Origin: Escherichia coli
GTDB lineage: Bacteria > Pseudomonadota > Gammaproteobacteria > Enterobacterales > Enterobacteriaceae
NCBI RefSeq assembly: GCF_024502345.1
Contig: NZ_JALDNN010000001.1
Direction: 5' to 3' (one strand)
Length of the DNA: 64,000 nucleotides
In this document: piece after piece, positions 5,542 to 52,918 of the stretch
Position numbering within the stretch: the first letter of the stretch is position 1
How the letters are laid out: every line of letters starts with the position of its first letter
Position numbers and translations under genes: made by a program
The notes under the pieces: model-generated
Databases searched by the model: none
What the model was told of the DNA's origin: nothing
What the model saw: the letters and a program-made list of their open reading frames with translations, nothing else

Positions 5542-6549
5542 ATGAGTCTGGATATCAACCAGATTGCTCTGCACCAGCTTATCAAGCGTAATGAGCAGAA
5601 CCTTGAGCTGGTGTTGCGCGATTCATTGCTGGAACCGACAGAAACCGTCGTTGAGATGGTGGCAGAACTGCATCGGGTCTATAGCACCAAAAATAAAGCT
5701 TACGGCTTGTTTAGCGAAGAGAGTGAACTGGCGCAGACGCTGCGCTTACAGCGTCAGGGCGAAGAGGACTTTCTGGCATTTAGCCGCGCGGCAACCGGTC
5801 GCCTGCGTGACGAATTAGCGAAATATCCTTTTGCTGACGGTGGATTCGTGCTGTTTTGTCACTACCGTTATCTGGCGGTGGAGTATTTGCTGGTGGCAGT
5901 TCTGAGCAACCTGAGCAGTATGCGCGTTAACGAAAATCTCGACATCAACCCAACCCATTATCTTGATATCAATCATGCGGATATTGTTGCGCGTATCGAT
6001 TTAACCGAATGGGAAACCAATCCAGAGTCCACCCGCTATCTCACTTTCCTGAAAGGGCGAGTAGGGCGCAAAGTGGCGGATTTCTTTATGGATTTCCTCG
6101 GGGCCAGCGAAGGTTTAAACGCGAAAGCGCAAAACCGTGGGCTGTTGCAAGCGGTTGATGATTTCACTGCCGAAGCACAACTGGATAAAGCAGAGCGACA
6201 GAACGTGCGCCAGCAGGTTTATAGCTACTGTAATGGGCAGCTGCAGGCAGGCGAAGAGATCGAACTGGAGTCGCTGTCGAAAGAGCTGGCAGGCGTCAGC
6301 GAAGTGAGCTTCACGGAGTTTGCGGCTGAAAAAGGCTACGAACTGGAAGAGAGCTTCCCGACAGACCGTAGCACACTGCGTCAGTTGACGAAGTTTGCCG
6401 GTAGCGGCGGTGGCTTGACTATTAACTTTGATGCGATGCTGTTAGGTGAACGCATCTTCTGGGATCCAGCAACCGATACCTTGACCATTAAAGGCACGCC
6501 GCCGAATTTGCGCGACCAATTGCAGCGCCGGACGTCTGGCGGCAATTAA
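5542..6549 (+). CDS. yejK: nucleoid-associated protein YejK (NdpA)
   Basis: 335-aa ORF recognised as YejK. Confidence 0.9.
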
Positions 6550-6568
6550 TCGGTTTTGTGTTCTGAAT

Positions 6569-6602
6569 GCCAGATGCGGCGTGAACGCCTTATCTGGCCT
6601 GC
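6569..6602. repeat. REP-like palindromic element
   Basis: GCCAGATGCGGCGTGAACGCCTTATCTGGCCTGC, imperfect palindrome typical of REP/PU units. Confidence 0.55.
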
Positions 6603-6642
6603 AAAAAATAGCAATACCGTAATCAGCATAATCTGCAGATAC

Positions 6643-6670
6643 AAAAAACCCCGCCGGAGCGGGGTTTTTT
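6643..6670. terminator. bidirectional rho-independent terminator between convergent yejK and rplY
   Basis: AAAAAA-CCCCGCCGGAGCGGGG-TTTTTT: GC hairpin flanked by A-run and T-run. Confidence 0.85.
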
Positions 6671-6686
6671 ACAACTTATTCAGCAA

Positions 6687-7079
<393 letters not shown>

Positions 7080-7095
7080 TCAATCAAAACTACCA

Positions 7096-8856
7096 TTAAC
7101 CGCGTAATTCGTGCGCCCGACGAAAACGACCTTCGTAATCGAACACTTTTTCACGCACTTGCCAGTACTGACCTTTCATGCGGGCGACGACAAAATCCGG
7201 ATGTCGCAGTAAGGCTTGCTGGGCGAGGATATCGGCGGCGGTGATCCAGCGCAGAGGGATGCCCGGTGTGCGCGTATGCGGGCGGATAAAAAGCTGCTCG
7301 AAGGCAGTTCGCTGGGCGGGCGTTTGCAGACGGAAACGCTCACTCACATCCGCGCCGTCTTCATCGTAATAGGTGATTTTCAACCATTCGCCTTTCTCGT
7401 CGTGCCCATGCTGCAAAGACATGCCGCTACAGCGTAATACCAGCGCGTCTTTCAGTCGTAGCGCCGCTTTTAACATATCGTCAGGATCAACCAGTACCGT
7501 GTCACATTCGCGGCAGCGGCGAGCGGCAATATCATTTTCTGCGTTACATTGCGGGCAATTTTTAAAACGGAAACGGAAGTCACACTGTTCGCGATGACCG
7601 TCGTCATCTTCAAACCATCCCTGGCAGCGGCGACCAAAGTGTTCAATCAATGTTCCGTCAGCGGTCGTTTTCCCCCAAAAGGTGTTAGCAAAGCCGCAGG
7701 CAGGGCAGAAAACCTGTACCGGAACGTTGTCACTTTTGCCTTTCGGTGTACCAACTTCCGGCGCGTAGAGGTCGTGAGGATTACCCGCATAATCAAGAAT
7801 TAAGCAATCAGTCTTGCCAGGAGCGAGACGCAGACCGCGCCCGACAATCTGTTGGTAAAGACTCACTGATTCGGTAGGGCGCAGAATGGCGATAAGATCG
7901 ACGTGCGGGGCGTCAAATCCGGTGGTCAGTACCGCGACGTTGACCAGATAGCGAAAACGCTGGGCTTTAAAATTTTCAATTAACACATCGCGCTCAGCGC
8001 CGGGGGTGTCGCCAGTAATCAGTGCAGCATCTTCGGCGGGTAGTAATCCCACAATCTCTTTTGCGTGTTCAACGGTGGCGGCGAAAATCATCACCCCTTT
8101 GCGCGTTGCAGCAAACTCCATAATCTGGCTGATGATGTGCGGGGTAATACGTTGTTGTTTTTTTAGCTCGCGGTTGAGATCGGCTTCGCTGAACAGCCCA
8201 TTACTCTGTGCCTGCAAGCGGCTGAAATCGTATTGCACTACTGGCATATCCAGTCGTTCTGGCGGCGTCAGATAGCCGTGTTTAATCATATAACGCAGCG
8301 GCAGTTCATAAATGCAGTCACGGAAAAGGGCTTTCTCATCGCCGCGTACCATGCCGTGATAATGGAACTGGTAGATCCAGCCTTTGCCCAGTCGAAAAGG
8401 CGTGGCAGTCAGCCCCAGCAGGCGTAAGTGGGGATTCACTTTTGTCAGGTGAGTGAGGATTTGCTGATACTGGCTCTCTTCATCGTCACCAATACGGTGA
8501 CATTCATCGACAATCAACAGCGAAAATTCACCCTGAAAGGCATCAAGATTACGGGCGACCGACTGCACGCTGCCAAATACCACTTTACCGTGGCTCTCTT
8601 TGCGCTTTAGCCCGGCGGCAAAAATATCGGCTTCCAGCCCCAGCGCCTGATACTTTGCATGGTTTTGCGCCACCAGTTCTTTAACGTGTGCCAGCACCAG
8701 TACGCGACCACGAGCCAGCCGTGCCAGTTCCGCTATCACCAGGCTTTTACCTGCGCCGGTGGGCAGCACGATAACGGCAGGGGTTTTATGACGACGAAAA
8801 TGGTTGAGCGTGGCATCCACGGCTTCTTGCTGATATGGGCGAAGTGTAAAAATCAT
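7096..8856 (-). CDS. radD: ATP-dependent helicase RadD (YejH), superfamily 2
   Basis: 586-aa ORF with Walker A (LPTGAGKS) and DECH box; recognised as YejH/RadD. Confidence 0.9.
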
Positions 8857-29954: not shown

Positions 29955-30193
29955 GTGTTCATGTTCTGTGCATCCCGTCACAAATTCCTCGCTTTTGTAA
30001 TTCAGGCATTTAATCGCATTTTGTGAGCCTGCTCAAATCTGCCCATTTTGCCTCTCTGGCGGTAATTTACTTTACGTAAAACATGCATACTATGAGCACA
30101 TGTTTAAATATGAACACATGTTTAAACCGTCTTTGCAGTATCTATATTCTTGTGGATTGACAGGGTTGGTAATTTTTTACCAGAGGACGTGCT

Positions 30194-31135
30194 ATGCGCG
30201 AAAAGGATTATGTCGTAATTATAGGTTCGGCGAATATTGATGTCGCCGGATATTCACATGAATCATTAAATTATGCGGATTCAAATCCAGGTAAAATAAA
30301 ATTTACGCCTGGTGGGGTAGGGCGAAATATTGCACAAAACCTGGCGTTGCTGGGTAACAAAGCCTGGCTACTGAGCGCAGTAGGCAGTGATTTTTATGGT
30401 CAATCGCTGCTAACGCAAACCAATCAATCTGGCGTTTATGTCGATAAATGCCTGATTGTGCCGGGAGAAAATACGTCGAGCTATTTATCATTACTCAATA
30501 ATACCGGTGAAATGCTGGTTGCTATAAATGACATGAATATTAGCAACGCTATTACAGCTGAATATCTCGCACAGCACCGTGAATTTATTCAGAGGGCAAA
30601 GGTCATTGTCGCGGACTGTAATATCAGTGAAGAGGCACTGGCATGGATTCTGGATAATGCTGCCAACGTACCCGTATTTGTCGATCCGGTTTCAGCGTGG
30701 AAATGTGTCAAAGTGCGCGACCGTCTAAATCAGATCCACACTCTCAAGCCAAACCGCCTTGAAGCGGAAACCCTGAGTGGGATTGCGCTGTCAGGGCGTG
30801 AAGATGTGGCAAAAGTTGCTGCCTGGTTCCATCAACATGGCCTGAACCGACTGGTATTGAGCATGGGCGGCGATGGCGTTTATTACAGTGATATCAGCGG
30901 TGAAAGTGGCTGGTCTGCCCCGATCAAAACCAATGTTATTAATGTTACCGGAGCGGGCGATGCCATGATGGCGGGACTTGCTTCGTGTTGGGTAGACGGA
31001 ATGCCGTTTGCCGAATCTGTTCGTTTCGCACAGGGATGTTCGTCAATGGCGCTCTCCTGTGAATACACCAATAACCCCGATTTATCGATTGCCAACGTTA
31101 TATCGTTAGTGGAGAACGCAGAATGTCTGAATTAA
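30194..31135 (+). CDS. psuK: pseudouridine kinase PsuK (YeiC), PfkB family
   Basis: 313-aa product recognised as YeiC/PsuK. Confidence 0.9.
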   Translation: MREKDYVVIIGSANIDVAGYSHESLNYADSNPGKIKFTPGGVGRNIAQNLALLGNKAWLLSAVGSDFYGQSLLTQTNQSGVYVDKCLIVPGENTSSYLSLLNNTGEMLVAINDMNISNAITAEYLAQHREFIQRAKVIVADCNISEEALAWILDNAANVPVFVDPVSAWKCVKVRDRLNQIHTLKPNRLEAETLSGIALSGREDVAKVAAWFHQHGLNRLVLSMGGDGVYYSDISGESGWSAPIKTNVINVTGAGDAMMAGLASCWVDGMPFAESVRFAQGCSSMALSCEYTNNPDLSIANVISLVENAECLN

Positions 31136-32061
31136 AAATTTCCCCTGAATTATTACAAATTTCCCCGGAAGTGCAGGACGCTTTAAAAAACAAAAAACCG
31201 GTTGTGGCGCTGGAATCGACCATTATTTCTCACGGGATGCCGTTCCCACAAAATGCCCAGACCGCAATTGAAGTAGAAGAAACTATTCGTAAACAGGGCG
31301 CAGTACCTGCCACTATCGCAATTATTGGCGGCGTGATGAAAGTGGGTTTAAGCAAAGAAGAAATTGAATTACTGGGTCGTGAAGGGCATAACGTGACCAA
31401 AGTTAGTCGTCGCGATTTACCTTTTGTTGTTGCCGCCGGAAAAAATGGCGCAACCACTGTGGCTTCAACGATGATTATTGCGGCGCTTGCCGGAATTAAA
31501 GTATTTGCCACCGGGGGAATTGGTGGTGTGCATCGCGGGGCGGAACATACCTTCGATATTTCTGCCGATTTGCAAGAACTGGCAAATACTAATGTCACCG
31601 TTGTTTGTGCCGGGGCGAAATCTATTCTCGATTTAGGATTAACCACTGAGTATTTAGAAACCTTCGGTGTGCCGTTAATTGGCTATCAGACTAAAGCGCT
31701 GCCTGCGTTTTTCTGCCGTACCAGCTCGTTTGACGTCAGCATTCGTCTCGACAGCGCCAGTGAAATTGCCCGTGCAATGGCGGTGAAATGGCAAAGCGGG
31801 CTGAACGGTGGCCTCGTGGTAGCGAACCCGATCCCGGAACAGTTTGCGATGCCGGAGGAATCTATCAATGCAGCCATAGATCAAGCCGTCGCCGAAGCCG
31901 AAGAGCAGGGCGTTATTGGTAAAGAAAGTACACCGTTCCTGCTGGCGCGCGTTGCTGAGCTGACCGGCGGTGACAGCCTGAAATCCAATATCCAGCTGGT
32001 GTTCAACAACGCCATTCTGGCGAGTGAAATTGCCAAAGAATACCAGCATCTCGCGGGTTAA
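31123..32061 (+). CDS. psuG: pseudouridine-5'-phosphate glycosidase PsuG (YeiN)
   Basis: 312-aa product recognised as YeiN/PsuG; overlaps the psuK 3' end. Confidence 0.9.
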   Translation: MSELKISPELLQISPEVQDALKNKKPVVALESTIISHGMPFPQNAQTAIEVEETIRKQGAVPATIAIIGGVMKVGLSKEEIELLGREGHNVTKVSRRDLPFVVAAGKNGATTVASTMIIAALAGIKVFATGGIGGVHRGAEHTFDISADLQELANTNVTVVCAGAKSILDLGLTTEYLETFGVPLIGYQTKALPAFFCRTSSFDVSIRLDSASEIARAMAVKWQSGLNGGLVVANPIPEQFAMPEESINAAIDQAVAEAEEQGVIGKESTPFLLARVAELTGGDSLKSNIQLVFNNAILASEIAKEYQHLAG

Positions 32062-32088
32062 TTTCTGACGGGCAGAAAGCCGTCGCCC
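32062..32088 (+). promoter_or_regulatory. conserved leader motif upstream of psuT (alternative hairpins)
   Basis: TTTCTGACGGGCAGAAAGCCGTCGCCC; near-identical copy upstream of nupX; can fold as TTTCTG/CAGAAA, GACGG/CCGTC or GGGC/GCCC stems. Confidence 0.4.
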
Positions 32089-32154
32089 GTACTCATCAAG
32101 CATACCAAAACCTGGCGCTGACGCCGGGTTTACTGGCATGAAGGGAAAATCATT

Positions 32155-33405
32155 ATGGATATAATGAGAAGTGTTGTGGGGATGGTGGTGTTACTGGCAA
32201 TAGCATTTCTGTTGTCAGTGAATAAAAAGAGCATCAGTTTGCGCACGGTTGGAGCCGCACTGCTGCTGCAAATCGCTATTGGTGGCATCATGCTCTACTT
32301 CCCACCGGGAAAGTGGGCAGTAGAACAGGCGGCATTAGGCGTTCATAAAGTGATGTCTTACAGTGATGCCGGTAGCGCCTTCATTTTTGGTTCGCTGGTT
32401 GGGCCGAAAATGGATGTCCTGTTTGACGGTGCGGGTTTTATCTTCGCCTTTCGCGTACTTCCGGCGATTATTTTCGTTACTGCGCTCATCAGTCTGCTGT
32501 ACTACATTGGCGTGATGGGGCTGCTGATTCGCATCCTTGGCAGCATTTTCCAGAAAGCTCTTAACATCAGCAAAATCGAATCTTTTGTCGCAGTCACAAC
32601 TATTTTCCTCGGGCAAAATGAGATCCCGGCGATCGTTAAACCGTTTATCGATCGCATGAATCGCAACGAGTTGTTTACCGCAATTTGTAGCGGGATGGCG
32701 TCCATTGCTGGTTCGATGATGATTGGTTATGCTGGAATGGGCGTACCAATTGACTACCTGTTAGCGGCATCGCTGATGGCGATCCCAGGTGGTATTTTGT
32801 TTGCACGTATTCTTAGCCCGGCCACCGAGCCTTCGCAGGTCACATTTGAAAATCTGTCGTTCAGCGAAACGCCGCCAAAAAGCTTTATCGAAGCGGCGGC
32901 GAGCGGTGCGATGACCGGGCTGAAAATCGCCGCTGGTGTAGCGACGGTGGTAATGGCGTTTGTCGCAATTATTGCGCTGATCAACGGCATTATCGGCGGA
33001 ATTGGTGGCTGGTTTGGTTTCGCCAATGCCTCTCTGGAAAGTATTTTTGGCTATGTGCTGGCACCGCTGGCGTGGATCATGGGTGTGGACTGGAGTGATG
33101 CCAATCTTGCGGGTAGCCTGATTGGGCAGAAACTGGCGATTAACGAATTCGTCGCTTACCTGAGTTTCTCCCCATACCTGCAAACGGGCGGCACGCTGGA
33201 AGTGAAAACCATTGCGATTATCTCCTTTGCGCTTTGTGGTTTTGCTAACTTTGGTTCTATCGGTGTTGTCGTTGGCGCATTTTCGGCTATTTCGCCAAAA
33301 CGTGCTCCAGAAATCGCCCAGCTTGGTTTACGGGCGCTGGCAGCAGCAACGCTTTCCAACCTGATGAGTGCGACTATTGCCGGGTTCTTTATTGGTCTGG
33401 CGTAA
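32155..33405 (+). CDS. psuT: CNT-family nucleoside transporter PsuT (YeiM)
   Basis: 416-aa multi-TM product recognised as YeiM/PsuT; paralog of NupX. Confidence 0.9.
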   Translation: MDIMRSVVGMVVLLAIAFLLSVNKKSISLRTVGAALLLQIAIGGIMLYFPPGKWAVEQAALGVHKVMSYSDAGSAFIFGSLVGPKMDVLFDGAGFIFAFRVLPAIIFVTALISLLYYIGVMGLLIRILGSIFQKALNISKIESFVAVTTIFLGQNEIPAIVKPFIDRMNRNELFTAICSGMASIAGSMMIGYAGMGVPIDYLLAASLMAIPGGILFARILSPATEPSQVTFENLSFSETPPKSFIEAAASGAMTGLKIAAGVATVVMAFVAIIALINGIIGGIGGWFGFANASLESIFGYVLAPLAWIMGVDWSDANLAGSLIGQKLAINEFVAYLSFSPYLQTGGTLEVKTIAIISFALCGFANFGSIGVVVGAFSAISPKRAPEIAQLGLRALAAATLSNLMSATIAGFFIGLA

Positions 33406-33415
33406 TGCTCGATTT

Positions 33416-33457
33416 GTAGACCGGATAAAACGTATTAAGCGTTGCATCCGGCAATCG
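33416..33457. repeat. REP-like palindromic element downstream of psuT
   Basis: GTAGACCGGATAAAACGTATTAAGCGTTGCATCCGGCAATCG (CCGGAT...ATCCGG arms). Confidence 0.5.
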
Positions 33458-33475
33458 CGCTATTGCAAATAATTT

Positions 33476-34135
33476 TTACTGCATCATCCCGGAGAATTTA
33501 TTCTCCGGGTCCATCTCCAGCGCCAGTCCTGACAACTGCTTTCTGTTTTTAATGAGATACCCTTTCTTGCTTTTAGTTAATAAACCGTCGTGAATGAATT
33601 GCGCGAGAACATATAAAAGATGTCGATAAGAAACGCCTAAATACTCTGCCGCTTGCGTATGCTTTTCGTGATAAAGATCACCTTCCTGCGAGAGTAATAT
33701 AAAAGCTGCCAGGCGATTAACTAACGGAAATGATTGATTCTGAGTTAAAGAAACAATATTACGATAATTTTTATGACTTAAGGTGACGCAGAGTTTTCGT
33801 AAAAATAGCGTGTCGTTTAATAACAGCGGGCGGTAATGTTTCATAGAGAGCGCAAGGCACCAACACTCTTCAATAGCCTGCACCGCACGCGGTTCATGGT
33901 CTTTGTCGATTAACTCAATCTCACCAATAAAACAGGGGGCGGCAAAGAAATCGATCAGCGACACGCGACCATTAGCAAGCGTGGCGTAAAGCCTGGCGCG
34001 GCCTCGCGTCAGATAAAACAGCCAGGACGGCTGTTGCCCTTCCTGCACAATGTAGTCACGCGCTAAAAAATGAAACAGCCGCGTATCGGCTGAAACATCC
34101 GTTAAAAAGCAATCCTTAAACGCGGATTCACTCAT
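33476..34135 (-). CDS. yeiL: Crp/Fnr-family transcriptional regulator YeiL
   Basis: Cyclic-nucleotide-binding-like domain plus C-terminal HTH; start taken at MSESAFKD (219 aa), the ORF extends to 34174. Confidence 0.8.
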
Positions 34136-34303
34136 CAATTGCAGCTTAAGATCATTATTGTGGATTTCTTTCACGATGTTTATCCGCTGTGAGATTTCTC
34201 ATATTTAGCATACGTACGCTGTTGTTAAGATTCAATCATCGGCCCGGTCGAATTTTCTTTGCTGTAGAAAAAATAACGCAACTGGAAACAGAGGAAATAA
34301 ACA

Positions 34304-35245
34304 ATGGAAAAGAGAAAAATTATTCTGGATTGTGATCCGGGTCATGATGATGCTATTGCAATGATGATGGCAGCGAAACATCCGGCGATTGATTTATTAG
34401 GCATCACTATTGTAGCGGGTAATCAGACGCTTGATAAAACATTAATTAATGGCCTGAATGTTTGCCAGAAACTGGAGATTAATGTTCCGGTTTATGCGGG
34501 GATGCCGCAACCCATTATGCGTCAACAAATCGTTGCCGATAATATTCACGGTGAAACCGGACTGGATGGCCCGGTATTCGAGCCGCTGACCCGCCAGGCA
34601 GAAAGTACCCACGCGGTGAAATACATCATTGATACCCTGATGGCAAGCGATGGCGATATCACTCTGGTGCCGGTTGGTCCGCTTTCAAATATCGCGGTGG
34701 CAATGCGTATGCAACCCGCGATCCTGCCCAAAATCCGTGAAATTGTGCTAATGGGCGGCGCTTACGGTACAGGCAACTTCACGCCATCTGCCGAGTTCAA
34801 CATCTTTGCTGACCCGGAAGCCGCACGCGTGGTGTTCACCTCCGGCGTTCCATTAGTGATGATGGGCCTCGATCTTACCAACCAGACCGTTTGCACCCCG
34901 GACGTAATTGCTCGGATGGAAAGGGCAGGCGGCCCTGCCGGAGAGCTGTTCAGCGACATCATGAACTTCACTCTCAAAACGCAGTTCGAAAACTACGGCC
35001 TGGCTGGCGGCCCGGTGCACGACGCCACCTGCATCGGTTATCTGATTAACCCTGATGGCATTAAAACCCAGGAGATGTACGTCGAAGTGGACGTCAACAG
35101 TGGCCCTTGCTATGGGCGTACCGTCTGCGACGAGCTGGGCGTTCTTGGCAAGCCCGCTAATACCAAAGTCGGCATCACTATTGATACCGACTGGTTCTGG
35201 GGCTTAGTCGAAGAGTGCGTGCGCGGCTACATCAAAACCCATTAA
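34304..35245 (+). CDS. rihB: pyrimidine-specific ribonucleoside hydrolase RihB
   Basis: 313-aa product with N-terminal DCDPGHDD inosine-uridine hydrolase motif. Confidence 0.9.
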
Positions 35246-35292
35246 GTGTTGATAACAAGCCGGGTCAGTATCGCAAGATCCAAGCCCGGCTA

Positions 35293-35319
35293 TTTCTGAT
35301 GGGCAGAAAGCCGTCGCCC
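35293..35319 (+). promoter_or_regulatory. conserved leader motif upstream of nupX (paralogous to the psuT leader)
   Basis: TTTCTGATGGGCAGAAAGCCGTCGCCC, 26/27 identical to the psuT leader; the single difference keeps pairing as a G-U wobble. Confidence 0.4.
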
Positions 35320-35344
35320 AATATGACATGAAGAGATAATAACT

Positions 35345-36595
35345 ATGGATGTCATGAGAAGTGTTCTGGGAATGGTGGTATTGCTGACGATTGCGTTTTT
35401 ACTGTCAGTAAACAAGAAGAAGATCAGCCTGCGTACCGTTGGCGCGGCGTTAGTGTTACAGGTCGTGATTGGCGGGATTATGCTTTGGTTACCGCCAGGG
35501 TGTTGGGTCGCTGAAAAAGTCGCTTTTGGCGTGCATAAAGTGATGGCGTACAGCGACGCGGGTAGCGCATTTATCTTCGGTTCGCTGGTCGGGCCGAAAA
35601 TGGACACGCTGTTTGATGGCGCAGGATTTATCTTTGGTTTCAGAGTGTTACCGGCAATTATCTTCGTCACCGCGCTGGTGAGTATTCTCTATTACATCGG
35701 TGTGATGGGGATCTTAATTCGCATTCTCGGCGGTATATTCCAGAAAGCATTAAATATCAGCAAGATCGAGTCATTCGTCGCGGTCACTACCATTTTCCTC
35801 GGGCAAAACGAAATTCCGGCAATCGTCAAACCCTTTATCGATCGTCTGAATCGCAATGAATTATTTACAGCGATTTGTAGTGGCATGGCCTCGATTGCTG
35901 GTTCGACAATGATTGGTTACGCCGCACTGGGCGTACCTGTGGAATATTTGCTGGCGGCATCGTTAATGGCGATCCCAGGCGGAATCTTGTTTGCCCGCCT
36001 GTTAAGCCCGGCTACGGAATCTTCGCAGGTTTCTTTTAATAACCTCTCTTTCACCGAAACACCGCCAAAAAGCATTATTGAAGCCGCCGCGACAGGGGCA
36101 ATGACCGGGCTGAAAATCGCCGCAGGTGTGGCGACAGTAGTGATGGCATTTGTCGCCATCATTGCGTTAATTAACGGTATTATCGGCGGCGTTGGCGGCT
36201 GGTTTGGTTTTGAACATGCCTCGCTGGAGTCCATTTTAGGTTATCTGCTGGCCCCACTGGCGTGGGTAATGGGTGTTGACTGGAGTGATGCGAATCTTGC
36301 CGGGAGTTTGATTGGACAGAAACTGGCAATAAATGAATTTGTCGCTTATCTCAATTTCTCACCCTATCTGCAAACGGCTGGCACTCTGGATGCTAAAACC
36401 GTGGCGATTATTTCCTTCGCGTTGTGCGGTTTCGCTAACTTTGGTTCTATCGGGGTGGTGGTGGGGGCGTTTTCTGCGGTTGCACCACACCGTGCGCCGG
36501 AAATCGCCCAGCTTGGTTTACGCGCGCTGGCGGCGGCGACACTTTCTAACCTGATGAGTGCCACCATTGCCGGGTTCTTTATTGGTTTAGCGTAG
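35345..36595 (+). CDS. nupX: CNT-family nucleoside permease NupX
   Basis: 416-aa multi-TM product recognised as NupX. Confidence 0.9.
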   Translation: MDVMRSVLGMVVLLTIAFLLSVNKKKISLRTVGAALVLQVVIGGIMLWLPPGCWVAEKVAFGVHKVMAYSDAGSAFIFGSLVGPKMDTLFDGAGFIFGFRVLPAIIFVTALVSILYYIGVMGILIRILGGIFQKALNISKIESFVAVTTIFLGQNEIPAIVKPFIDRLNRNELFTAICSGMASIAGSTMIGYAALGVPVEYLLAASLMAIPGGILFARLLSPATESSQVSFNNLSFTETPPKSIIEAAATGAMTGLKIAAGVATVVMAFVAIIALINGIIGGVGGWFGFEHASLESILGYLLAPLAWVMGVDWSDANLAGSLIGQKLAINEFVAYLNFSPYLQTAGTLDAKTVAIISFALCGFANFGSIGVVVGAFSAVAPHRAPEIAQLGLRALAAATLSNLMSATIAGFFIGLA

Positions 36596-36607
36596 TGTGC
36601 GATTTAT

Positions 36608-36646
36608 GAGCCGGATAAGATGCGGTCAAGCGTCGAATCCGGCAAC
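36608..36646. repeat. REP-like palindromic element downstream of nupX
   Basis: GAGCCGGATAAGATGCGGTCAAGCGTCGAATCCGGCAAC. Confidence 0.5.
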
Positions 36647-36650
36647 ATTG

Positions 36651-37739
36651 TTACACCATTGGCACTAATGAAAGCGCGTTATCGGCAGACAGGGTAGGGT
36701 TGTTTAAGCTGCCGCTGGCGCGTGAAATTGCCGCGCAGGCTACCGCAAAACGGGCGCTGTCGCGGAAACTGTATCCTTCAAGAAAGCTATATACCAGGCC
36801 CGCCATAAAACCATCGTCAGCACCAAAACTGTCTACTGTCGTATGCGCTGGCGCGGTCAGCAAAAATTGTTCTCCATCCTTTTCGCTGCAATAAACTGAC
36901 TCATCGGGCAAATAAACAAACAGTTGCTGAACACCTTGCTGATGCAACGCATTCACTGCAGCATTACGGTCAGCATCGCTGGTGATCGCCTGTCCCCATA
37001 AAATTTCCAGCTCCGGTAAAGTGGGTTTCAGGGTGTGAATATGCGCCAGCCAGTGTTTGATTTTGCCCGCTTTGAATTCTGAAACGGTATCGACAAACAC
37101 CGGGATCTCATCAGCGAGGGTAAAGACCCATTCCAGCGCCTCGGCTGTCAGGTTGCAATCAGCCAGTACCACGCCCGCATGACGAAGTAAATCGCGCGAC
37201 CCGTTCAGTAGTTGCGGTGTCAACTGTTCCAGCAGATGGGTATCGTTAATCGCCAGCACGGTTTGATCGTCTCGATTGGCAATTGCCAGATACGTCGATG
37301 TGCTTTGACCATGCAAACGAACGCAGCCGGAGACATTCACGCCGGCGCGGCGCGTTTCTTCCAGGAGCATTTCGCCATAAAAGTCATCGCCAATCACTGA
37401 AAGCAAATGGACGTCACGGCCTAACAGCGCCAGATTGTGGGCGATATTGCGTCCAACGCCGCCTGCCGAGCAATGAATTGTACCGGGATGAGAAGCCGCT
37501 TGCGGGTAATGGATATCCGCCATCCCGCGAATATCCATATTGATTGTCCCCACCACTACGCAGTATTCCTGCTCGGTGAGAATGTAACCTTTGCCTTTAA
37601 TCCGGCCTTTGCGCATTAAATCCATAATATGCGCCGCAACGCGCGAACGACTGATTTGCAGCATGTTCGCAATTTCGTTCTGCTGAATCAGCGGGTTACG
37701 CCGTAAAATTGCAAGGATCTCCTTTTCCCGGTTATTCAT
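36651..37739 (-). CDS. yeiI: PfkB-family kinase with N-terminal HTH domain, YeiI
   Basis: 362-aa product; N-terminal winged HTH plus ribokinase-like domain paralogous to PsuK. Confidence 0.85.
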   Translation of the reverse strand: MNNREKEILAILRRNPLIQQNEIANMLQISRSRVAAHIMDLMRKGRIKGKGYILTEQEYCVVVGTINMDIRGMADIHYPQAASHPGTIHCSAGGVGRNIAHNLALLGRDVHLLSVIGDDFYGEMLLEETRRAGVNVSGCVRLHGQSTSTYLAIANRDDQTVLAINDTHLLEQLTPQLLNGSRDLLRHAGVVLADCNLTAEALEWVFTLADEIPVFVDTVSEFKAGKIKHWLAHIHTLKPTLPELEILWGQAITSDADRNAAVNALHQQGVQQLFVYLPDESVYCSEKDGEQFLLTAPAHTTVDSFGADDGFMAGLVYSFLEGYSFRDSARFAVACAAISRASGSLNNPTLSADNALSLVPMV

Positions 37740-37741
37740 CT

Positions 37742-38599
37742 TCAGGCTACCGCTTTTTCAGTTTGTTGCGCTTTCAGCCAGGCGATCTCTTCTGCCCAGA
37801 TATCCGGGTTGATGGTTTCAAGGATCAGCGGAATGCCGTCGAAACGGTCGTCCTGCATGATCCAGCGGAACGCATCATGACCGATATTGCCTTCACCGAG
37901 GCTATGATGGCGGTCAACGCGGCTGCCAAAGGTGCTTTTCGCATCGTTAAGGTGCATCCCGCGCAGATACTTAAAGCCGACAATACGGGCAAAATCAGCG
38001 AACGTTTTCTCGCATTCGGCTGGAGTACGCAAATCATACCCGGCAGCGAAAGCATGGCAGGTATCAATGCAGACGCCGACGCGGGATTTATCTTCCACGC
38101 CGTCGATAATCGCCGCGAGATGTTCGAATTTAAACCCTAAGTTACTGCCCTGACCGGCGGTGTTTTCAATCACCGCGGTCACACCTTGAGTTTTATCCAG
38201 CGCAATGTTGATGGATTCGGCAATACGCGCAAGGCAATCCTCTTCTGAAATCTGCATCAGATGGCTGCCAGGGTGGAAGTTGAGCAAAGAAAGCCCCAGC
38301 TGTTCGCAACGCTGCATTTCATCTATAAAGGCATCGCGCGATTTTTCCAGAGCTTCAGTGACCGGATGTCCGAGGTTAATCAGATAACTGTCGTGGGGAA
38401 GAATTTGCGCCGATGTGTAGTGATATTTTTCACAGGCGGCTTTGAATTCATCGATGGTTTGCGTCGTGAGCGGTGCGGCACGCCACTGACGTTGGTTTTT
38501 GGTGAACAAGGCAAACGCGGTTGCGTCGATTTCGGCGGCGCGAATTGCGGCATTTGCCAGACCGCCAGCAGCACTAACGTGCGCTCCAATGTATTTCAT
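37742..38599 (-). CDS. nfo: endonuclease IV (AP endonuclease)
   Basis: 285-aa product [14 protein letters not shown]... recognised as Nfo. Confidence 0.95.
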
Positions 38600-52743: not shown

Positions 52744-52918
52744 GTAGGCCGGATAAGGCGTTCACGCCGCATCCGGCGACAGGAGCCAAATGCCGGATGC
52801 AACGCTGGCGCGTTTTATCCGGCCTACAATGAGTTCAACATACTGATTTGTATGGTTTTGTAGGCCGGATAAGGCGTTCAAGCCGCATCCGGCGACAGGA
52901 ACTAAATGCCGGATGCGT
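52744..52918. repeat. BIME: cluster of REP/PU palindromic units
   Basis: Two near-identical copies of TAGGCCGGATAAGGCGTTCA(C/A)GCCGCATCCGGCGACAGG with inverted partner units, between mglC and preA. Confidence 0.85.

Follow-up and report, generated by a model that had tools for sequence, protein, structure and literature searches.

A conserved RNA hairpin in the leaders of the paralogous transporter genes psuT and nupX of Escherichia coli

Gene organization of the psuK-yeiI locus

The window analyzed here is a 64,000-nt stretch of Escherichia coli DNA (contig NZ_JALDNN010000001.1) that contains the genes fruA, psuK, psuG, psuT, yeiL(-), rihB, nupX, yeiI(-), nfo(-), yeiH(-), yeiE, and lysP in this order, where (-) denotes the minus strand and the names were taken from the RefSeq annotation of a matching E. 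coli record. The two transporter genes, psuT and nupX, are each preceded by an intercistronic leader, and both leaders contain a short hairpin, termed H1, which is the main subject of this report (Table 1). The 8-kb stretch from psuK to yeiI matches 5,425 of 5,426 complete E. coli genomes, and in 5,365 of the 5,426 the match covers at least 80% of it; the closest complete genome in the collection is 98.9% identical over the 8 kb, and none is nearer.

A first-pass annotation had designated the locus a nucleoside salvage island, in agreement with existing annotation. NupX transports uridine and cytidine with low efficiency, while transport of uridine, cytidine, and xanthosine by PsuT was in each case undetected, and the role of PsuT in relation to pseudouridine has been deduced from its operon (PMC11241209). 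The deletion of psuT in production strains serves to block pseudouridine re-uptake (PMC13090712). YeiI is uncharacterized and has no assigned function; it is the closest relative of pseudouridine kinase in E. coli (PMC9061257).

Table 1. Positions in the window of the genes, leaders, hairpins, and palindromes of the locus (ORF, open reading frame; CDS, coding sequence; SD, Shine-Dalgarno sequence; REP, repetitive extragenic palindrome; HTH, helix-turn-helix)
Feature	Position	Strand	Basis and remarks
psuK	30194-31135	+	ORF; RefSeq name; PfkB Pfam match on orthologs; module B enzyme gene
psuG	31123-32061	+	ORF; RefSeq name; Indigoidine_A Pfam match on orthologs; module B enzyme gene
psuG-psuT intercistronic leader, 93 nt (H1, linker, H2, SD)	32062-32154	+	RNAalifold: two hairpins
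H1 of psuT leader	32068-32090	+	stem 32068-32073/32085-32090; loop 32074-32084 (AGAAAGCCGUC); covariance model 47.1 bits
H2 hairpin AAACCUGGCG-CUGA-CGCCGGGUUU	32108-32131	+	folding; RNAalifold
psuT CDS, CNT/NupC-family transporter, 416 aa	32155-33405	+	ORF; RefSeq name; alignment
REP-like palindromic unit 3' of psuT	33420-33454	+	folding; naRNA4 match; REP pattern
yeiL, CRP/FNR-family regulator (cNMP_binding, HTH_Crp_2)	33476-34174	-	ORF; RefSeq name; orthologs
Palindrome TGTGAGATTTCTCATA, yeiL-rihB divergent region	34188-34203		candidate YeiL/CRP operator; 9/10 genera
rihB, pyrimidine ribonucleoside hydrolase (IU_nuc_hydro)	34304-35245	+	ORF; RefSeq name; orthologs
rihB-nupX intercistronic leader, 99 nt (H0, H1, SD)	35246-35344	+	alignment; folding
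H0 hairpin GCCGGGU...GCCCGGC then UAUUUCUGAU	35259-35290	+	folding
H1 of nupX leader	35300-35320	+	stem 35300-35304/35316-35320; loop 35305-35315 (AGAAAGCCGUC); covariance model 43.4 bits
nupX CDS, CNT/NupC-family transporter, 416 aa	35345-36595	+	ORF; RefSeq name; alignment
REP-like palindromic unit 3' of nupX	36610-36645	+	folding; naRNA4 match; arm comparison
yeiI, HTH-PfkB kinase, 40% identical to PsuK	36651-37739	-	ORF; RefSeq name; orthologs

A shared leader block upstream of psuT and nupX

The first-pass annotation described psuT and nupX as paralogs, each preceded by a conserved leader motif and followed by a REP-like hairpin, and proposed that the duplication had copied a regulatory-plus-coding unit. 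The two proteins were indeed found to be 88% identical and 95% similar in a gap-free alignment, and both carry the domains of the CNT/NupC family, namely Nucleos_tra2_N (PF01773), Gate (PF07670), and Nucleos_tra2_C (PF07662), according to the precomputed Pfam matches of cluster representatives (99% identical) and of every ortholog. The leader motif, TTTCTGAYGGGCAGAAAGCCGTCGCCC, occurs exactly twice in the window (32062-32088 and 35293-35319); no further copy with up to three mismatches was found in the 64 kb, and 100 shuffles yielded none.

Pairwise alignment of the two modules with their flanks, the check that the annotation had suggested, revealed on the 5' side a 28-nt block with 27 identities, followed by a 41-nt insertion in the psuT leader only and then by approximately 25 conserved nt up to the ATG. 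The 5' similarity thus exceeds the Shine-Dalgarno sequence and is not limited to generic features. The coding sequences of psuT and nupX are 78% identical overall, 51% identical at third codon positions, and 46% identical at fourfold-degenerate sites, and the 27/28 match between the non-coding leaders therefore lies far above the neutral level; among 1224 windows of 28 nt in the CDS, just seven reached the same identity. The nupX leader of E. coli SCPM-O-B-8794 (L002, 11090-11202) keeps 12 extra nt, a TAACGGGATCAGACC-type segment, that are missing from the nupX leader of the window.

Conservation of the leader extends across genera. Among Escherichia, Citrobacter, and Kluyvera, psuT-type leaders show 79-84% identity over H1 and the sequence down to the ATG, at a third-position identity of 50-56%. 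The nupX leader of Klebsiella spallanzanii still contains the second hairpin, H2, and is 79% identical to the psuT leader of E. coli; because of this, the ancestral leader appears to have consisted of H1, a linker, and H2, with H2 lost later from most nupX leaders. These comparisons indicate that the leader is under purifying selection in both paralog lineages, and its conservation across genera and across paralogs does not appear attributable to local gene conversion.

Structure, conservation, and covariation of H1

H1 consists of a G+C-rich stem of 5-6 bp and an 11-nt loop with the consensus AGnnnGCsGUC; over 20 distinct sequences, the consensus of the hairpin is Y-R-G-G-Y [A-G-n-n-n-G-C-s-G-U-C] R-C-C-Y-R. 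The leader set comprised 24 leaders from 11 genera, and 21 of these, from ten genera, hold the H1 core in register and free of gaps. Pairing and covariation were counted on 20 distinct sequences and wobble pairs on 22. Positions G13, G14, G21, G24, T25, G27, C28, and C29 are invariant, and G12, C15, A16, G17, and C22 are at least 90% conserved. Within the loop, 8 of the 11 unpaired positions are at least 70% conserved and three (G21, G24, and U25) are invariant.

The stem pairs in 93.6% of alignment cells, compared with 33-52% when the partner column was slid. Compensatory changes were observed in three of the seven pairs (C-G/U-A at 11-31, G-C/A-U at 12-30, and A-U/G-C at 10-32), and the covariation score was reached by none of 500 shuffles. 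RNAalifold on the leaders returned the same five core pairs. Over the 22 sequences, the stem shows seven G·U wobbles and one A·C in total, an asymmetry that folding of the sense RNA strand would produce. H1 is present in both paralog lineages and in loci that carry only the psuT module or only the nupX module (see below). An H-type pseudoknot between the 5' flank UUUCU and the loop sequence AGAAA, with a seemingly compensatory UGACU/AGUCA in Superficieibacter, was also considered and was rejected, as only 63% of cells pair over the 20 sequences.

Specificity of H1 to the two leaders

A search of Rfam 15 with the whole region and with single leaders, using permissive filters, found no family that matches H1; the best scores on the leaders, isrJ at 18.9 bits (gathering threshold 37) and FsrA at 14.6 bits (gathering threshold 80), were both driven by H2. 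When a covariance model of H1 was applied to 1.5 Mb of NupC-family loci from many phyla, it matched the leaders of the psuT/nupX clade only; one extra match (L067, E = 0.017) falls within 6971-7387, a called ORF. BLAST of a 39-nt block against the 5,426 E. coli genomes gave a median of two places per genome, both being the known leaders, and no further near-identical copy was detected at BLAST sensitivity.

Metagenomes were scanned with the pattern YGGGCAGNNNGCSGTCGCCCR and viral sequences with the same pattern minus its two outer bases. Among the matches listed, at least nine have a PsuT homolog downstream, all on Escherichia-like contigs; the others listed lie mostly on G+C-rich contigs, and the inspected ones of moderate G+C content lie inside long ORFs. 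We read the remaining matches as probable chance occurrences. A viral contig (L278, IMGVR_UViG_3300006654_000150, 2633-2670) contains the exact 19-mer GGGCAGAAAGCCGTCGCCC within a longer hairpin, AGAGGGC...GCCCUCU-CUUUUU; this hairpin is terminator-like, and chance would be expected to give about one match of this kind in the 91 pattern matches.

The psuT/nupX leader was undescribed in the literature found by a full-text search on these gene names. H1 is thus an undescribed conserved RNA hairpin, while the paralogy of the two genes and their REPs were already known or are ordinary.

Other elements of the leaders

H2 occurs in psuT-type leaders and in the nupX leader of K. spallanzanii, and most nupX-type leaders are without it. 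It is composed of an A-tract, a 7-bp GC stem, and 3-4 U residues, and is weakly terminator-like. The linker 3' of H1 is single-stranded and rich in A/U and C; in psuT-type leaders, its sequence between H1 and H2 is conserved as AUCAnnnAUACCAAAA (AUCAnnnAUACC). A terminator scan called neither H1 nor H2, and H1 is followed by GUACUCAU or AAUAUGAC rather than by the U-tract of an intrinsic terminator. RNAalifold on the leaders revealed no conserved antiterminator-type helix competing with H2, and a sigma-70 promoter scan found no promoter-like site in either leader. The hairpin H0 of the nupX leader is possibly a leaky terminator of rihB; inspection by eye showed a hairpin at the same site, past the rihB stop, in other nupX-type leaders, with an unconserved sequence.

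Three further readings of leader sequences were rejected. A leader peptide encoded at 32138-32164 (ATG AAG GGA AAA TCA TTA TGG ATA TAA, MKGKSLWI*), overlapping the start of psuT, is absent in several genera, and the motif stands in different frames in the two leaders. On inspection of the leaders, no conserved complementarity was found that would pair the loop or flanks of H1 with the ribosome-binding site. Between GCGGTCGCCCG and the RfaH ops element, no more than 8 of 12 positions agree, key positions differ in E. coli, and the element would stand in the wrong context. The start codon of psuT lies within a perfect palindrome, TCATTAT-GGAT-ATAATGA (32150-32167), which is folded in the minimum free energy structure.

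Two separable modules and their regulator genes

Related loci, gathered by a species-level genome scan and protein look-ups, consist of two modules, each with the transporter gene last. Module B comprises psuK-psuG-psuT with a convergent yeiI, and module A comprises rihB-nupX with yeiL, which is always divergent from rihB. The order B-A-yeiI is found in E. coli, Kluyvera, and Entomohabitans, and the order A-B-yeiI in Enterobacter hormaechei. Module B alone is present in E. albertii, three Citrobacter, Klebsiella michiganensis, and Leclercia sp. TB492. Module A alone occupies the interval between fruA and nfo in Salmonella enterica, Buttiauxella, and Leclercia adecarboxylata, and lies elsewhere in the genome in K. 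spallanzanii, Superficieibacter, and H11S18/Dryocola. This distribution indicates that yeiL belongs with rihB-nupX and yeiI with psuKGT, and that the fruA-nfo interval is a slot in which the two modules are gained, lost, and reordered, where the paralogous transporter genes are available as recombination substrates. In the genomes with module A only, nfo directly adjoins nupX and yeiI is absent there.

The first-pass annotation had suggested that YeiL or YeiI might bind the leader regions, which our comparison makes unlikely. H1 is present without an adjacent yeiL at six loci, those of Citrobacter, E. albertii, and K. michiganensis among them, and without an adjacent yeiI at four loci, including those of Salmonella, Buttiauxella, and K. 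spallanzanii, so that H1 and a regulator gene do not consistently co-occur at the locus and neither local regulator is needed for the conservation of H1. A CRP/FNR-type palindrome sits elsewhere, in the divergent region between yeiL and rihB. It is a near-perfect 16-bp palindrome with CRP/FNR spacing (TGTGA-N6-TCACA-like), is conserved as T(G/A)TGAGATTTCTCATA beside the yeiL start in nine of the ten genera that have yeiL-rihB-nupX, and is absent from both transporter leaders. It is a likely candidate operator for YeiL (or CRP), and no report of it was found by full-text search on the gene names of the locus. In addition, the fruA-psuK intergenic region contains two CRP-like sites, TGTGCATCCCGTCACA (29967-29982) and TGTGAGCCTGCTCAAA (30022-30037), each one mismatch from TGTGA-N6-TCACA.

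Age of the duplication

At third codon positions, psuT and nupX are no more alike (0.51) than orthologs from different genera (0.49-0.54), and their synonymous sites are saturated. A neighbor-joining tree groups PsuT as a clade, with NupX as a basal grade inside Enterobacteriaceae. Serratia and Hafnia possess a psuK-psuG-psuT operon, whose transporter is equidistant (about 73%) from PsuT and NupX. Based on the tree topology and on a third-position identity at the level of inter-genus orthologs, we place the duplication at about the base of Enterobacteriaceae, probably after the split from Hafnia and Serratia. The saturated sites, the tree, and the separable modules all argue against a local duplication in E. 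coli.

Two features of the loci of Serratia, Hafnia, and 'Klebsiella sp. BIGb0407' (L007-L010) may be recorded here. For the kinase encoded upstream of psuG (approximately 5800-8000), the alignment with YeiI reaches about 160 nt farther upstream than the one with PsuK, and we read this kinase as having an N-terminal extension that resembles the HTH region of YeiI. The psuT leader of these loci contains a conserved long hairpin, CCUGAAAGGUGG...CACCUUUCAGG, in place of H1.

REP-like hairpins and recombination at the 3' flanks

The REP-like hairpins that had been placed at 33416-33457 and 36608-36646 were found within these bounds, but they are ordinary and Escherichia-specific. Their folding z-scores are -2.6 (psuT) and -3.7 (nupX). 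Both are extragenic imperfect palindromes of 30-40 nt with arms of the GCCGGATA...ATCCGGC type, and both gave weak matches to the REP-derived naRNA4 model. The psuT unit has the CCGGATA...ATCCGG form seen in the canonical REPs at 52749-52892, a BIME-like (bacterial interspersed mosaic element) array of three units that served as the reference; the nupX unit has the same arms except for a 3' AATCCGG and was missed by the exact pattern [CT]ATCCGG. Like the REP/BIME elements of E. coli, which are imperfect palindromes of approximately 35 nt of the CCGGATAA...CATCCGGC type, the two units stand just past stop codons and between convergent genes; nothing about them is unusual, and they are degenerate single units.

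The alignment of psuT with nupX also covers the approximately 14 nt that separate each stop codon from its REP, so that the likeness of the two units extends into non-REP flank, since the 3' gene ends recombine in Escherichia. In E. coli SCPM-O-B-8794 (L002, 12300-12530), the last 180 nt or so of psuT and nupX are homogenized, forming a conversion tract with a third-position identity of 0.87 in the last window; in this strain, nupX ends at a different stop, and 30 nt are inserted ahead of its REP. In E. albertii psuT (L003, 3420-3520, compared with 36560-36660 of the window), approximately the last 30 nt, the REP, and the yeiI flank match nupX rather than psuT of E. coli, which fits a deletion of yeiL-rihB-nupX by a crossover between the paralogs. 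Kluyvera and Entomohabitans have the gene order of E. coli and unrelated sequences 3' of both transporter genes; for this reason, the REP and the 3' flank lie outside the ancient unit. The 3' similarity is thus a separate feature, ordinary and Escherichia-specific, and is maintained by exchange between the 3' ends of the paralogs through recombination or gene conversion. The copied unit of the first-pass annotation therefore stands for the leader, which was inherited with the transporter gene in both paralog lineages, but not for the REP and the 3' flank: the homology is ancient on the 5' side and confined to Escherichia on the 3' side.

Observations on the surrounding sequence

At the nfo-yeiI junction on the minus strand (37739-37742), yeiI starts 2 nt past the nfo stop, and yeiI is therefore probably co-transcribed with nfo. 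Between 30000 and 38000, the window differs from the best-matching genome, E. coli KL53, at 89 clustered positions, with 0-2 differences per 500 nt over 31000-34000 and 5-15 per 500 nt elsewhere, a pattern that suggests a recombination mosaic.

Discussion

The comparative evidence leads us to favor, at a probability of roughly 0.55, the reading that H1 is a cis-acting leader RNA that tunes transporter output and whose loop is recognized by a non-local factor. The duplication that gave rise to psuT and nupX would have carried the transporter leader of approximately 90 nt along. The H1 stem-loop would form in the sense RNA, in the stretch that separates the coding regions of enzyme and transporter, and would act in cis as a post-transcriptional control element, setting, together with H2 in psuT-type leaders, the amount of transporter made from the polycistronic mRNA. 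Its loop would be read sequence-specifically by a factor encoded outside the locus, whether a protein, an RNA, or a small ligand, and this factor would then act on read-through, processing, or translation initiation.

Several observations weigh against this reading. The H1 sample corresponds to about 12 independent lineages, and the covariation statistics are accordingly modest. Some states are lineage-specific and common to both E. coli copies (the TTTCTGA flank, the loop AAA, and C23), which suggests that local gene conversion inflates their 27/28 identity. The absence of yeiL and yeiI was judged at the locus only. In a published map of E. coli 3' ends (PMC7815308 supplements), no entry falls within either leader and none is assigned to psuT, psuG, or rihB; its only entries in this region are antisense to nupX and to yeiL. 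Furthermore, the conserved loop has been replaced by a longer self-complementary hairpin in the nupX leaders of Leclercia and E. hormaechei and in the psuT leader of Entomohabitans, and a different long hairpin occupies the H1 site in Serratia and Hafnia, raising the possibility that a stable hairpin as such, and not the sequence of its loop, is what matters.

This last point leads to the alternative that we keep most seriously in view, unlikely as we consider it: H1 may be a generic intercistronic stability or processing hairpin that blocks 3' exonucleases or serves RNase E as a landmark, uncouples the mRNA levels of enzyme and transporter, and has a loop that is not read. Some hairpin stands at the H1 site in every leader, those with replaced loops and those of Serratia and Hafnia included; H1, having no U-tract, is itself no terminator, and the A/U- and C-rich linker on its 3' side would also suit this role. 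However, the conservation of the loop described above, three of whose positions are invariant despite saturated synonymous sites, would be needless for stability, and the REPs, the usual performers of that job, vary freely here.

We consider it very unlikely that H1, linker, and H2 together make the leader a small riboswitch or attenuator, one that would respond to a pyrimidine nucleoside or a catabolite (pseudouridine, uridine, uracil, or ribose-5-phosphate) by switching termination at H2 or translation. Its position upstream of nucleoside transporters, its independence of local protein regulators, the conserved unpaired nucleotides in the loop and the linker (AUCAnnnAUACC), and the likeness of H2 to a weak terminator, with an A tract and a U tract at its sides, would accord with a sensor of this kind, and no known RNA family matches. 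H1 is, however, very small and simple, with one covarying helix and no multi-helix core, and neither a conserved antiterminator pairing nor a conserved pseudoknot was found, the sole candidate helix being the one rejected above. Moreover, most nupX-type leaders would have to work without H2, and no instance upstream of other genes was found in the searches described above.

Less probable again is a function in DNA, in which the motif would be a double-stranded inverted-repeat operator (GGGC-N11-GCCC) for YeiL, YeiI, or the LysR-type regulator YeiE at an internal transporter promoter. The 5-bp inverted repeat has a fixed spacing of 11 bp, and two HTH proteins are encoded in the locus. In contrast, G·U exceeds A·C seven to one, on the sense strand only, and the spacer, although conserved, lacks symmetry; neither leader yielded a sigma-70-like promoter, the motif persists at loci without an adjacent yeiL or yeiI, and the CRP/FNR-type palindrome belongs to the yeiL-rihB promoter region, outside the leaders. 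Least of all do we expect H1 to be without function, with the leader similarity in E. coli a by-product of gene conversion between the paralogs of the kind documented at their 3' ends: the E. coli copies do share derived states unseen in other genera, but H1 is conserved between paralogs that sit in different genomes, such as nupX of Salmonella and psuT of Citrobacter, and therefore cannot be explained by conversion within a genome, and the adjoining 5' CDS has no conversion tract, its third-position identity being 0.38-0.43 in the first windows.

If the loop of H1 is indeed read by a ligand or a protein, an RNA-level regulator would be added to a well-studied genome. A bolder proposal, and a long shot, is that the leader of approximately 90 nt represents a new class of cis-regulatory RNA of Enterobacteriaceae, either a riboswitch or the site of an RNA-binding regulator, which would respond to pyrimidine-nucleoside status, with pseudouridine released by RNA turnover as one example, and would gate the expression of CNT transporters within operons, in E. 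coli too. How E. coli regulates its uptake of pseudouridine and pyrimidine nucleosides is essentially uncharacterized, and a covarying hairpin specific to two genes offers a concrete and cheap handle on transporter control. The comparative map also reassigns yeiL to rihB-nupX and yeiI to psuKGT, while the REP part of the locus is ordinary.

Comparison with known systems

The known regulation of nucleoside transporters in E. coli is the control of nupC and nupG by CytR and CRP. The psuT/nupX locus shares with this system its nucleoside-transporter targets and has CRP-like sites upstream of psuK and in the yeiL-rihB region; CytR and CRP, however, work on promoter DNA, whereas H1 is internal to operons, has the covariation of an RNA, and contains no CRP/CytR-like site. 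The preQ1-I riboswitch (RF00522) resembles H1 in its stem of approximately 5 bp, its loop of approximately 11 nt, its conserved A-rich tail, and the transporter gene downstream. However, H1 has no Rfam match and no supported pseudoknot between loop and tail, and the sequences are unrelated.

Intercistronic stabilizer hairpins give differential expression within operons, as do the REPs in malE-malF. H1 is similar in that a hairpin is always present and stands between the gene for a highly needed soluble protein and that for a membrane transporter; unlike the malE-malF REPs, its loop is conserved across genera, and it is unique to two leaders rather than a dispersed repeat. Hairpins in mRNA that are recognized by proteins through conserved loops include lambda boxB, bound by N, the operator of the phage MS2 coat protein, and the thrS operator. 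Although the loop of H1 is longer (11 nt) and unrelated in sequence, and although H1 is intercistronic rather than at the 5' end of a transcript, it has in common with these elements a short stem that is free to covary, a conserved loop, a position in an mRNA leader, and, on the reading that we favor, an action in cis.

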